A DNA stretch of 64,000 bases. Source: Okamejei kenojei (taxonomy: Eukaryota). Position 1 is the stretch's first letter. Every line of letters begins with the position of its first letter. The stretch covers positions 1,550,001 to 1,614,000 of the forward strand of contig CM069160.1 of NCBI GenBank assembly GCA_035221665.1, written 5' to 3'. Made by a program: the position numbers and the translations under genes. Positions 1,746-17,500 of this stretch are shown here, in pieces. Under the pieces are notes generated by a model. It made no database searches. It was not told where the DNA came from and saw nothing but the letters and a program-made list of their open reading frames with translations.

Positions 1746-2025
1746 CCAGGAAGACCTCGAGGGTCTGGGACAGCCCCGGGTGCTCCACACGGCAGGGAGA
1801 ACGGGGTCGTGTCCCCCTCCCGTGGCTCCACGTCAGCCCCAAGCGGTGCTGATGGAAGGTGCGTCGTGGTTGGGCAGCGTCCCCGTGGGATGAAGCGGCT
1901 CTTCATCCAGGACAGGCCGTCCCGCACCAGGTTCACCTCGATGGAGCGCGGGTAGAGCCCGTGGTGAAACACGACACTGCGGCCGCCATTTGGCTGACAG
2001 GAAGTATGCTCCACCTCGGGCTGAA
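1746..2025 (-). CDS. UAA: MHC class I exon 4 (alpha3 Ig-C1 domain), frameshifted as assembled
   Basis: Motifs spread over three frames: VQPEV, SCFTTG, YPRSIEVNLVRDG, VLDEE, GTLPNHD, CRVEHPGLSQTLEVF. Acceptor CCCCACAG, donor GTGAGT. Confidence 0.9.
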
Positions 2026-3848: not shown

Positions 3849-4121
3849 CGGGGCTGAGTTGACTCTGTCCGGCCTGGACATATTTCTGCAGCCACTCGAT
3901 GCACGTCTCCTCCAGGTATGCTTTGTCCTGTTGTAGCCCCCCCTTGTTCCGTTCCCACTTGTATTTGGTCAACAACCCCCAGGGGACGGGCGTCACCCAC
4001 ACCATGTGATCCTTGTCGTAGCTGATGAAGTCCTCTCCGTCCCAGCCGAACTGGTAAAACCCGGCGGTGGAGCCGTCCGCGCGAAGCTCACAGCCGCACA
4101 TCATCTGGGCTGTGTGGATCC
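3849..4121 (-). CDS. UAA: MHC class I exon 3 (alpha2 domain)
   Basis: 273 nt, open: GIHTAQMMCGCELRADG...WDGEDFISYDKDHMVWVTPVPWGLLTKYKW...AYLEETCIEWLQKY. Has C101/C164, F123, T143, K146, W147, Y159, Y171. Acceptor TTGCAG, donor GTGAGT. Confidence 0.97.
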
Positions 4122-4127
4122 CTGCAA

Positions 4128-4185
4128 CACACGGCCAGCAGTGGTGGGGCTTTCCGTATCACACCCCCCATACCACACCCACACA

Positions 4186-4216
<31 letters not shown>

Positions 4217-4528
4217 GGCCGGCAGGAGTGGTGGGGACTTTCCGTATCACCACCCCCCCCCCCCCCCCCCCCCCCCACACACACACGCACACACAACACG
4301 GCAGGCAGTGGTGGGGCTTTCCGTATCACACCCCCCCATACACACCCACACACACACACACACACACACACGGCCAGCAGTGGTGGGGCTTTTCCGTATC
4401 ACACCGCCCACACCCGCCACACCCACACCACACACACTCACCCACACCCACACCCACACCACACCCACACCCAACACACACACTACGGCCGGCAGTGGTG
4501 GGGCTTTTCCGTATCACACACCCCCCCC

Positions 4529-4563
<35 letters not shown>

Positions 4564-4604
4564 CAGGCAGTGGTGGGGCTTTCCGTATCCACACCACCCC
4601 CCCC

Positions 4605-4635
<31 letters not shown>

Positions 4636-4815
4636 GCCACACACACATGCATGGTCACTACCCCTCCCCCCAACACCACACACACACACACACACACACG
4701 CATGGGTCTCTCTGCCCCCTCCCCTCCTCACACACACACACACACACACGCGTAGTCTCTCTGCCCCCTCCCCCTCTCTCACACACACACACACACAAAA
4801 CACACACACACACGG
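4128..4815. repeat. Compound repeat in class I intron 2: six 35-bp units separated by (CA)n/poly-C
   Basis: cggccagcagtggtggggctttccgtatcacacc at about 4131, 4216, 4298, 4371, 4486 and 4561. Confidence 0.9.
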
Positions 4816-4895
4816 TTTCTACCCCCTTTCCCAAACCCCAGCAACACAAATTCGACCCCAAACCACAGTACGTACCCCCCGCCCAACGCACTCAC

Positions 4896-5156
4896 CCACG
4901 GTCCGGTTGGTCCTCGCCTGCAGGATCCGGACATTGGCCTTGATTACCGGCTCCCATCCCCGCCGTTTCTGTGTCTCCCGCTCCCAGTACTCGGGGCCCT
5001 GACTCTCCGCCATCCACTGCTGCCGTGGCACCTTGATCCGGGTCACGCTGTCGTAGTAATCAATCTGCTCCTCGTCCACGTATCCCACCGCCGTGAACTC
5101 AGGGACCCCCCAGCCCGGGGTCACCCCCGTGTAGAGGTAACGGAGCGTGTGGGACC
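4896..5156 (-). CDS. UAA: MHC class I exon 2 (alpha1 domain)
   Basis: 261 nt, open: GSHTLRYLYTGVTPGWGVPEFTAVGYVDEEQIDYYDS...EYWERETQ...ARTNRTV. Has Y7, Y59, R84 and the N86 glycosylation sequon NRT. Acceptor CCAG, donor GTGAGT. Confidence 0.97.
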
Positions 5157-12407: not shown

Positions 12408-12465
12408 CTGCGGACTCGCCTCCACACAGGAGAGCCGCCAGCAGTAGCAGTAGCAGACGCTGCAT
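12408..12465 (-). CDS. UAA: MHC class I exon 1 (signal peptide MQRLLLLLLAALLCGGESA-G)
   Basis: ATG at 12465, hydrophobic leader, donor CAG|GTGGGT in phase 1 that joins the GG of exon 2 to give the mature N-terminus GSH. Confidence 0.88.
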
Positions 12466-12604: not shown

Positions 12605-12730
12605 CGCAAGATTTATGTCGCTCGCAATGACAGATGGAAAATATCCCAGTCTGTGCAATCAGCAGCGGAGCTGGGGCCCGCCTCACCGGTTGTCGGGGAC
12701 AGTGGAGAGCGTGTGATTTGCAATGACACA
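12605..12730 (-). promoter_or_regulatory. Putative MHC class I proximal promoter (X1/X2-like box, Y-like box, kB-like site, TATA-like box)
   Basis: Minus strand: CCCGACAACCGGTG(AGG) 12697-12684, then 21 nt, CTGATTGC 12662-12655, then GGGATATTTTCC about 12647-12636 and CATAAAT 12617-12611, about 150 nt upstream of the ATG. Confidence 0.55.
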
Positions 12731-12825: not shown

Positions 12826-14150
12826 AGTGAAGAAAGCGAATGGCATGATTCCTGGGATGGCCAGACTGATTCCTGGGATGGCCAGACTGATTCCTGGGAT
12901 GACCAGACTGATTCCTGGGATGGCCAGACTGATTCCTGGGATGGCCAGACTGATTCCTGGGATGGCCAGACTGATTCCTGGGATGGCCAGACTGATTCCT
13001 GGGATGACCAGACTGATTCCTGGGATGACCCAGACTGATTCCTGGGATTGCCAGACTGATTCCTGGGATGGCCGGACTGATTCCTGGGATGACCAGACTG
13101 ATTCCTGGGATGGCCAGACTGATTCCTGGCATGACCAGACTGATTCCTGGGATGACCAGACTGATTCCTGGGATGACCAGACTGATTCCTGAGATGTCCA
13201 GACTGATTCCTGGGATGGCCCAGACTGATTCCTGGGATGCCAGGACTTTCATATGAGGAAAGACTGGATAGACTCGGCTTGTACTCGCTAGAATTTAGAA
13301 GATTGAGAGGGGATCTTATAGAGACTTACACAATTCTTAAGGGGTTGGACAGGCTAGATGCAGGAAGATTGTTCCCGATGTTGGGGAGGACCATAACAAG
13401 GGGTCACAGTTTAAGGATAAGGGGGAAATCTTTTAGGACCGAGATGAGAACAAATATTTTCACACAGAGAGCGGTGAATCTGTGGAATTCTCTGCCACAG
13501 AAGGTAGTTGAGGCCAGTTCATTGGCTATATTTAAGAGGGAGTTAGATGTGGCCCTTGTGGCTAAAGGGATCAGGGGGTATGGAGAGAAGGCAGGTACAG
13601 GATACTGAGTTGGATAATCAGCCATGATCATATTGAATGGCGGTGCAGGCTCGATGGGCCAAATGGCCTACTCCTGCACTATTTTCTATGTTTCTATGAA
13701 TATGAGCATAGAGGTCCTTCTGCAGCTGTACAGAGACCTAGTGAGACCACACCTGGAGTATTGTGTGGAGTTTTGGTCCCCTAATTTGAGGAAGGACATT
13801 CTTGCTATTGAGGGAGTGCAGCGTAGGTTTACAAGGTTAATTCCCAGGATGGCGGGACTGTCATATGCTGAGAGAATGGAGCAGTTGGGCTTGTACACTC
13901 TGCAGTTTAGAAGGATGAGAGGGATTCTCATTGAAACATATAAGATTGTTAAGGGCGGTGGAGGTGGGTTCTCTGGATGCTTTCAAGAGAGAGCTAGAGA
14001 GGGCTCTTAAAAATAGCAGAGTCAGGGGATATGGGGAGAAGGCAGGAACGGGGTACTGATTGGGGATGATCAGCCATGATCACATTGAATGGCGGTGCCG
14101 GCTCGAAGGGCCAAATGGCCTACTCCTGCACATATTGTCTATTGTCTATC
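12826..14150 (+). mobile_element. Two tandem CR1-type LINE 3' fragments
   Basis: ORFs 13237-13608 and 13624-14010 carry CR1 RT C-terminal motifs. Confidence 0.9.
12846..13242. repeat. 21-bp minisatellite (CCAGACTGATTCCTGGGATGG) x19
   Basis: 19 copies of ATTCCTG at 21-22 nt spacing from 12848 to 13228. Confidence 0.95.
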
Positions 14151-14589: not shown

Positions 14590-17500
14590 GTACATGTCTA
14601 AATGTTTCAAGGTGACCAAGGCTGGGAGCTCAACATGTAAGGGTATTCAATATTCAGGAAAGATAGACCAAAAGGAAGAACAGTTAAAGAGGAGACTAAT
14701 GCATTAGTAAGGAGAGACATTTGCTTGGATGCTGTAGAATTTGTGGGTAGAACTGCAAAATAAACAAGGGTAAAAAACCCTTGTGTACAGACCAGCAAAC
14801 AGCAGTAGGGAGGTTGGGTTTGGCATCAAACACGAAACTAGGGATGCGCGTAGCAAAGGTACAGTAGTTAACATGGGTGACTTTAATCTACATATAGATT
14901 GGGTCAACCAAATTGGTAACAGCGCTGAGGAGGATTTCCTGGAATGTACAGTGGCTTGCAAAAGTTTTCATACCCCTTGAACTTTTCCACATTTTGTCAC
15001 GTTACAACTACAAACGTAAATGTATCTTATTGGGATTTTATGTGATAGACCAACACAAAGTGGTGCATAATTGTGAAGTGGAAGGAAAATGATACATGGT
15101 TTTCAAATTTTTTTACAAATAAAAAACTGAAAAGTGTGGCGTGGGGAAAAAGTATTCAGCCCCCCTTTACTCTGATACCCCTAAATAAAATCCAGTGCAA
15201 CCAATTGCTTTCAGAAGTCTCCTAATTAATAAATAGAGTCCACTTGTGTGTAATCTATTCTCAGTATAAATACAGCTGTTCTGTGAAGGCCTCAGAGGTT
15301 TGTTAGAGAAAAAACAGCATCATGAAGCCCAAGGAACACACCAGACAGGTCAGGGATAAAGTTGTGGAGAAGTTTAAAGCAGGGTTTTAGGTTATAAAAA
15401 TAATATCCAAGCTTTGAAACATCTCAAGGAGCACTGTTCAATCCATCATCCGAAACTGGAAAGAGTATGGCACAACTGCAAACCTACCAAGACATGGCCG
15501 TCCACCTAAACTGACAGGCCGGGCAAGGAGAGAATTGATCAGAGAAGCAGCCAAGAGGCCATGGTAACTCTGGAGAGCTGCAGAGATCCACAGCTCAGGT
15601 GGGAGAATCTGTCCCACAGGACAACTATTAGTCATGCACCCCACAAATCAGGCCCTTTATGGAAGAGTGGCAAGAAGAAAGCATTGTTGAAACAAAGCCA
15701 TAAGAAGTCCAGTTAGCAGTTTGCCACAAGCCATGTGGGGGACACAGCAAACATGTGGGGGAAGATGCTCTGGTCTGATGAGACCTAAATGAAGTTTTTG
15801 GCCTAAATGCAAAAACGCTATGTGTTGGCGGAAAAGTAACACTGCACATCACCCTGAACACACCATCCCCACTGTGAAACATGGTGGTGGCAGCATCATG
15901 CTGTGGGGATGCTTTTCTTCAGCGAGGGACAGGGAAGCTGGTCAGAGTTGATGGAAAGATGGATGGAGTCAAATACAGGGCAATCTTCAAAGAAAACCTG
16001 TTAGAGACTTCAAAAGACTTGAGATTGGGGCGGAGGTTCACCTTCCAGCAGGACAACAACCGTTAAACATAAAGCCAGAGCTACAATGGAATGGTTTAGA
16101 TCAAAGCATATTCATGTGTTAGAATGGCCCAGTCAAAGTCCAGACCTAAATCCAATTGAGAATCTCTGGCAAGACTTGAAAATTGCTGTTCACAGACGCT
16201 CTCCATCCAATCTGACGAGCTTGAGCTATTTTGCAAAGAAGAATGGGCAAAAATTTCAGTCTCTAGATGTGCAAAGCTGGTAGAGACATTACCCCAAAGC
16301 TTGCAGCGAAAGGTGGTTCTACAAAGTATTGACTCACGCGGGCGAAAACTTTTGCACGCCACACTTTTCAGTTTTTTATTTGTAATAAAATTTGGAAACC
16401 ATGTATCATTTTCCTTCCACTTCACAATTGTGCACCATTTTTGTGTTGGTCTATCACATAAATCCCAATAAAACACAGTTACGTTTTGTGGTTGTAACGT
16501 GGACAAAATGTGTGGGAGAAGTTCAAGGGGTGTATGAATACTTTTGCAAGCCACTGTATAATGGGGATGGTTTTCTAAGCCAATATGTAGAGGAACCAAC
16601 TAGAGGTAGGCCATCCTGGACTGGTTATTGTGTAATGAGGAAGGATTAGTTAGCAATCTTGTTGTGCAAAGCCCTTTGGGAACAGTGCCCATAATATGGT
16701 GGAATTCTGCATTAGGATGGACACAGTTAATCCAGAGGACTAGGGCCCCAAACTTAAACAAATTAGACTTTGTTGGTAGGAGACAGGAATTGGCAAGGAC
16801 AGACTGGCAAATTATACTGAAAGGGTTGAGGGTAGAGATGCGATGGCAAAGAATTTAAAGATTGCATGGATTTGACTATAAAAATTGTTCACCTCTGCCG
16901 GCGAAAAAAATAAAATGGGGGAAGGTGGCTCAACCGTGGCTAAGGAGGGAAATTAAGGAGAGTAATAAATCAAAGGAAGAGGCATATAAATTGGCCAGAG
17001 GAAACAGCAAACTGGGATAAATTTAGAATTCAACTGAATAGGACAAAGGGGTAAGTTAATAGGGGGAAGAAGAGCTTGAAACATAGAAACATAGAAAATA
17101 GGTGCAGGAGGAGGCCATTCGGCTCTTCGAGCCAGCACCCGCCATTCATTGTGATCATGGCTGAAAGAAAGATTGTGGGGAATATAAAAACTGTCTGTAA
17201 AAACTTCTTTAGATATGTGAAGAAGAAAAGATTAGTGAAGACAAATGTAGGTCCCTTACAGTCAGGAGAACAGGTGTATTTATAAGGGGAAATAAGTTAA
17301 TGGCAGACCAGCTTAAACAGATGCTTTGGTTCCGACTTCATTAAGGAACTCACATAATAATTCTCCCCGGAAATACTAGGGGACCGAGGATCTAGTGGGA
17401 GGGAGGAATTTGAAGGAATCCACATTAATCAGGAAATGGTGTTAGGTAAACTGTTGGGACTGTAGGCCTACAGATCCCCAGGGCCTGGCGGTCCTGCATC

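Follow-up and report, generated by a model that had tools for sequence, protein, structure and literature searches.

The enhancer A of mammalian MHC class I genes lies upstream, is non-repetitive and conserved, and contains kB-type decamers. Trepicchio and Krontiris reportedly found in 1992 that rel/NF-kB proteins bind the human HRAS1 minisatellite, which is also cited as an NF-kB-binding minisatellite in PMC8096271 (in part). The NF-kB consensus is given as GGGRNWYYCC (PMC6450194, in part). A second human example is the hs1.2 VNTR of the IgH 3'RR, in which a ~40-nt element occurs in 1-12 copies with C-rich separators, binds NF-kB and raises reporter activity as copies increase (PMC3068965, in part). 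Intronic VNTRs that act as enhancers or affect splicing have also been described, e.g., in SLC6A4 intron 2 (PMC8096271, in part).

We analyzed a 64,000-nt stretch of the genome of the skate Okamejei kenojei (the window), in which a sequence-only reading had noticed a cluster of six NF-kB-type sites within intron 2 of an MHC class I gene. The exon/intron structure of this minus-strand gene placed the cluster in that intron, as had been proposed:

12636-12647, minus strand: imperfect kB-like 12-mer GGGATATTTTCC, proximal promoter
12408-12465, minus strand: exon 1, leader peptide
4896-5156, minus strand: exon 2, alpha1 domain; open frame; shares 77-80 of its 87 residues with the nine members of the P0003 cluster
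4122-4895, minus strand: intron 2, 774 nt, GTGAGT...TTGCAG; sense strand 49% G, with 13 runs of (TG)4 or longer
3849-4121, minus strand: exon 3, alpha2 domain of MHC class I; open frame, with a PDB match and identity to the skate cluster
about 1746-2025, minus strand: exon 4, alpha3 domain; frameshifted in the assembly

The best PDB match of the alpha2 exon was an MHC class I structure (6lup_A, E 7.7e-33), 80 of its 90 residues were shared with the skate cluster P0003/P0017, and the nearest named proteins of the gene were from skates (Amblyraja, Leucoraja, Rostroraja). Exons 2 and 3 were clean. Read errors likely account for the frameshifts in alpha3, given that the assembly is indel-rich here and that the skate orthologs have an unbroken alpha3. 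In class I proteins, the ends of the peptide are anchored by Y7, Y59, R84, T143, K146, W147, Y159 and Y171, and the translations of the window gene carry all of these residues. Past the 3' end of the gene we found a PSMB8-like exon (about 46 kb, C30:1504600) and ABCB9/TAP2-like exons (about 76-85 kb, C30:1465868-1474110), a neighborhood that agrees with the position of elasmobranch class Ia genes beside PSMB8/9 and TAP (PMC10751288, in part). Two similar TAP2-like exons were present on the same contig, at 1.466 Mb (L058:5868-6077) and 5.549 Mb (L060:5366-5575; C30:5549366).

The exons on either side of the array had been called polymorphic peptide-binding exons. For the window gene, this description is doubtful. 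Only 6 of 178 alpha1/alpha2 positions varied among the nine members of the ortholog cluster (including little skate XP_055487160.1), a cluster that selects for similarity by its 90% identity, and three samples of organism A, from runs likewise selected for similarity, showed 0-1 letter differences to the window over the parts of exon 2 that were covered. These comparisons suggest that the window gene is likely conserved and of low polymorphism. Across skates, the class I gene beside PSMB8/TAP looks near-invariant in its groove (P0003, P0017-P0024), and class I genes of more variable appearance sit 5-6 Mb from the window gene.

The array itself consisted of six tandem cores of 31-35 nt, all in intron 2 and each with a kB match or near-match, and was accompanied in the same intron by a second, unrelated repeat family:

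4132-4162, plus strand: core 1 (type a), joined to the 3' splice site; GGGGCTTTCC at 4146-4155
4216-4250, plus strand: core 2 (type b); GGGACTTTCC at 4234-4243, which is GGGGCTTTCC with a one-base insertion
4299-4329, plus strand: core 3 (type c); GGGGCTTTCC at 4313-4322
4371-4402, plus strand: core 4 (type a); GGGGCTTTTCC at 4385-4395, no strict consensus match
4486-4517, plus strand: core 5 (type b); GGGGCTTTTCC at 4500-4510, no strict consensus match
4561-4592, plus strand: core 6 (type c); GGGGCTTTCC at 4575-4584
4649-4813, plus strand: second repeat family, three cores (4649, 4700, 4750) with a C-rich run and (CA)n after each

All six kB-like sites were found at the positions first reported (GGGGCTTTCC three times, GGGACTTTCC once and GGGGCTTTTCC twice). 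Four of them match GGGRNWYYCC strictly, but the two copies of GGGGCTTTTCC are one base longer and fall outside the strict consensus. The spacers (53, 48, 41, 83 and 43 nt), which had been described as (CA)n tracts, do contain (CA)n, but together with a C-run. Tandem amplification was borne out: the six units are head-to-tail copies of one intron segment with a period of 72-116, i.e., a minisatellite, in which TRF reported a period of 71 across 4262-4441. No kB match was present in the 4649-4813 family. A spare TAG occurs at 4485.

Read on the sense strand, the innermost unit runs directly into the acceptor (…GGCCGTGTGTTGCAG), with its decamer at intron positions -34 to -25, and the other five units have a long (TG)n and a G-run in place of the short TG stretch that precedes the acceptor. 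Every unit is flanked by TG tracts. The 5' ends of the cores read CGGCCAG, CGGCCGG and CGGCAGG, a series that occurs twice, and the spacers pair likewise. This a-b-c-a-b-c order suggests that a three-unit block was likely duplicated. Near its acceptor, the paralog L028 has CACTGAC, which we take to resemble the branch-point consensus; the window gene has CACTGCT at this place (4137-4143) and may therefore rely on a different branch point within the unit.

On this basis, we consider it probable that the array represents tandem copies of the acceptor-proximal ~35 nt plus a TG-rich spacer, generated when (TG)n tracts slipped or exchanged unequally, and that the kB match is a passenger. The short TG stretch at the acceptor would have misaligned with an upstream (TG)n, duplicating the segment, and a later duplication of a three-unit block would have brought the number of units to six. 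The kB match would already have been in the gene's own segment, with no selection on the decamer required, and Rel proteins may bind it weakly or in vitro with no regulatory result.

How often a kB match would enter such an array by chance was estimated in several ways. Across the window, where tandem repeats make up 28% of the sequence, kB matches were not enriched (13 versus 35.5 expected from shuffles). A match was present in 36 of 12,506 tiles of 32 nt, in 24 of the 4,280 GC-rich tiles and in 1,175 of 200,000 core shuffles, or overall in 0.3-0.6% of 32-nt pieces. These rates predict 0.4-0.8 kB-bearing arrays among the 134 that were scanned, yet the chance of a kB-bearing unit among the roughly six arrays of the window gene is only 2-3%; the coincidence is thus mild, but not nil. 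Only by treating the copies as independent would one find the local cluster extreme, and they are not independent: all are copies of one sequence, so the six sites amount to one event. In the same 134 arrays (about 384 kb, the window plus fetched loci), 24 had at least three copies of some motif of a 13-motif panel. None of them reached three strict kB sites, since TRF had split the window array, which was therefore not counted.

A near-identical copy of the gene region, 22-25 kb long, was detected 406 kb away (G000:C30:1144141-1165994; L026, L027, L050). It is isolated and indel-rich, with no substitution over the 541 nt of promoter and exon 1, many indels elsewhere, and a frameshifted alpha3 of its own. 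It may be a second haplotype or a recent duplicate gene. Duplication of the whole region was rejected, as the copy matches only about window 1-25,094. Its intron 2 contains four cores and a 430-nt CA-rich tract, and two of the four cores match the strict kB consensus. Core number, which had been proposed to vary, is therefore six in one and four in the other, as far as the noisy sequence of the near-copy allows, whether this is a second haplotype or a duplicate gene. An origin of the core from a dispersed element or transposon was also rejected: an exact 22-mer occurred three times, always within the array, and a 17-mer with one mismatch occurred eight times versus six for the reversed control, in a search that missed the gapped cores of the near-copy. 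Two weak DNA matches, on C12 and C26, had no core within 6 edits.

The indels raise the question of the units themselves. Around intron 2, gaps took up 29 of 431, 32 of 412 and 118 of 1,365 columns in alignments of the window with the near-copy, and alpha3 is frameshifted in both; the six-fold number and the variant sites could be largely assembly noise, the true allele having fewer or uniform units. Neither insertion variant (GGGACTTTCC or GGGGCTTTTCC) was present in the two contigs of short-read run X1 that cover cores. However, these contigs (one other letter each, no gaps) support both the acceptor-linked core (4060-4169, spanning core 1) and one internal core that is preceded by a CA tract, and an a-b-c-a-b-c pattern of substitutions is improbable from random error in a region whose exons 2 and 3 are clean. 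We regard this explanation as very improbable. The canonical Ig-kappa site that had been pointed out is indeed present in core 2, but as a one-base insertion in a single copy: core 5, the partner of core 2, carries a different one-base insertion, and none of the four cores of the near-copy has the Ig-kappa type. GGGACTTTCC thus reflects one recent mutation or else an error of assembly.

If the decamer had been selected, it might be expected to be the best-kept part of the unit, as one prediction of the sequence-only reading had it. It was not. Comparison of five copies with copy 1, a test of low power on six recent copies, gave 3 changes per 50 nt in the decamer versus 2 per 75 nt in the immediate flanks (Fisher p=0.39), a difference in the direction opposite to selection. 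Within the window, the decamer had zero substitutions, and a kB-like sequence survives each of the three insertions. The second prediction, presence of the decamer in homologous introns, found no support among paralogs: the window had four strict kB matches in intron 2 and the near-copy two, while the other class I introns 2, six in number and all from paralogs, had none (the alpha2 search gave 12 matches in total, some of which are pieces of one gene). Of two further runs, X8 gave no aligned contig and X4 no core of the window type, neither of which establishes its absence. The acceptor-proximal segment is nevertheless homologous in the paralogs L028 (C30:6.55 Mb) and L029 (C30:7.72 Mb), where the position of the decamer reads GGGGCTGACC and AGGGCTGTCC, respectively, and a paralog contig of a second individual reads …GAGCGCTGACC there. 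A contig of organism B aligned to 4061-4158 with 4 other letters in 98 and no gaps, the places of these letters not being given, so the kB site may have been kept between close species. Among the sequences read, the kB match is private to the lineage of the window gene.

The same intron of the paralogs had amplified a different unit. In L028 it is filled by the following array:

L028:6159-7291 (G000:C30 about 6.551-6.552 Mb): E-box array of 1.1 kb, about 38 units of a donor-proximal TACCAC/CACGTG core, 34 CACGTG E-boxes

The TACCAC/CACGTG unit was present in about 7 copies in L046, 2 in L029 and 0 in the window gene. L046 (G000:C30:3027381-3027632) has a frameshifted alpha1 exon with a few E-box units after it, and no match was found near it in the alpha2 search; it is likely a gene fragment. 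Class I intron 2 amplifies whatever sits in it. A bolder version would make skate class I intron 2 an enhancer factory, in which the conserved gene on the PSMB8/TAP side multiplied an NF-kB site, the paralogs independently multiplied an E-box unit, and unit number tuned the inflammatory response; this seems improbable. The passenger reading is what the anatomy of the unit, the triplet order, a decamer kept no better than its flanks, paralogs with a homologous segment lacking the decamer, and multiplication of another unit in a paralog intron all point to.

The repeats could also act at the level of RNA or of recombination, with (UG)n and G-runs tuning alpha2 inclusion or the TG-rich array driving alpha1/alpha2 exchange among class I genes. 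What each unit copies is the branch/acceptor zone, the sense strand carries the 13 TG runs listed above, and there is the extra TAG; in CFTR, UG tracts at an intron end are bound by TDP-43 with partial exon skipping as a result (PMC2978352, in part). The normal alpha1-alpha2 junction in all nine members of the ortholog cluster nonetheless argues against a large effect on splicing, and four runs, in which repeats at 4172-4818 were skipped, gave no joint within the intron. As for exchange, intron-2 recombination has been documented for class I genes of teleosts (PMC6523485, in part), and the little skate model P0006 pairs a window-type alpha1 (79/87 identical) with a different alpha2 (69/90 versus 80/90 for P0003), possibly by exchange in intron 2; however, the P0006 model is of low quality and could be a chimera. 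Both forms of this explanation appear rather improbable. Because its alpha2 is of another type, P0006 is not a clean ortholog. In this model the acceptor-proximal segment appears as an in-frame insert, CVKPLHCGPCVA, versus YGKPHHCWPCVA for the read-through of the window gene, and in none of the 13 five-codon windows of the insert could any codon choice encode the kB consensus.

The remaining alternative is that chance created the array but that it has since become an intronic NF-kB enhancer, the stronger the more units it has, as in human HRAS1 or IgH hs1.2. Several observations argue for it. The 440 nt of the array hold four strict and two near matches. Output gains dynamic range when several kB sites are present (PMC6450194, in part). 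In a human promoter, p65 works through GGGGCTTTCC, which is bound and reporter-active in human cells (PMC2879527, Table 2, in part). With PSMB8 about 46 kb off and a TAP-like gene at about 76-85 kb, the gene is a plausible target of NF-kB. The activity of GGGGCTTTCC, the low chance of a kB-bearing unit in such a target gene, the decamers free of substitutions and the alignable core of organism B also count against a mere passenger. Rel-homology domains were found in the genome, with 12 matches on 5 contigs; this family also includes NFAT-type proteins. Core number differs between window and near-copy. Amplification, location in intron 2 and kB sequence are as had been proposed, but the lack of preferential conservation of the decamer and its absence from paralogs speak against an inflammatory enhancer, as does the strict match in only two of the four near-copy cores; moreover, many consensus kB sites are unbound (PMC6450194, in part). 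By analogy with the human repeats, an enhancer is conceivable here, though unlikely.

The promoter had been brought in as a further argument, in that it was said to carry only an imperfect kB-like site. The 12-mer GGGATATTTTCC was indeed found, and no strict kB site occurred within 600 nt upstream of the ATG of the window gene, which would suit an enhancer placed in the intron. However, the paralog L028 also lacked a strict site in 600 nt upstream and had none in its intron 2. Compensation of a missing promoter site by intronic ones is therefore not specific, and the argument is weak, since both genes are alike in lacking a strict kB site upstream. Further upstream, a 21-nt unit is repeated in 19 copies (window 12846-13243, from 380 nt upstream of the ATG onward); TTCCTGGGA occurs 17 times in them, and the near-copy has 17 units. 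The unit resembles adjoining LINE-like sequence, and TTCCTGGGA is one base off a STAT/GAS-type motif. At window 14947-16558, a segment with inverted ends and a transposase-like interior is inserted in LINE-like sequence; we take it to be a candidate Tc1/mariner element.

If the array does act as an NF-kB enhancer tuned by copy number, an MHC gene of a cartilaginous fish would offer an example of a regulatory VNTR, and class I paralogs would have a simple, testable route to different inducibility. If it is neutral, it calls for caution: about one array in six here carries at least three copies of some transcription-factor motif, so tandem-copied motif clusters are weak evidence of function. In either case, the array may be used as a genotyping marker.

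The skate locus was not found in a literature search whose coverage of older shark MHC papers was thin. As a sequence, the array is an intronic minisatellite, a known kind of element, and NF-kB-binding minisatellites are already known in humans. The likeness to enhancer A of mammals is limited to kB-type decamers near a class I gene and implies no homology; enhancer A is upstream, non-repetitive and conserved, whereas the skate array is intronic and tandem. With SLC6A4 intron 2, it shares an intron-2 tandem repeat with transcription-factor motifs, which in the skate are predicted from sequence. In hs1.2, a short element is likewise present in copies parted by C-rich stretches at an immune locus, but there it is joined to a proven enhancer core conserved across amniotes (PMC3068965, in part); the skate array is without a known core, is absent from paralogs and shows no selective retention. 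In HRAS1, as in the skate, the minisatellite unit offers an NF-kB-type site and copy number could set the number of sites; binding was shown for HRAS1, and the skate unit, whose site is predicted from sequence, is a copied intron 3' end with microsatellite spacers.
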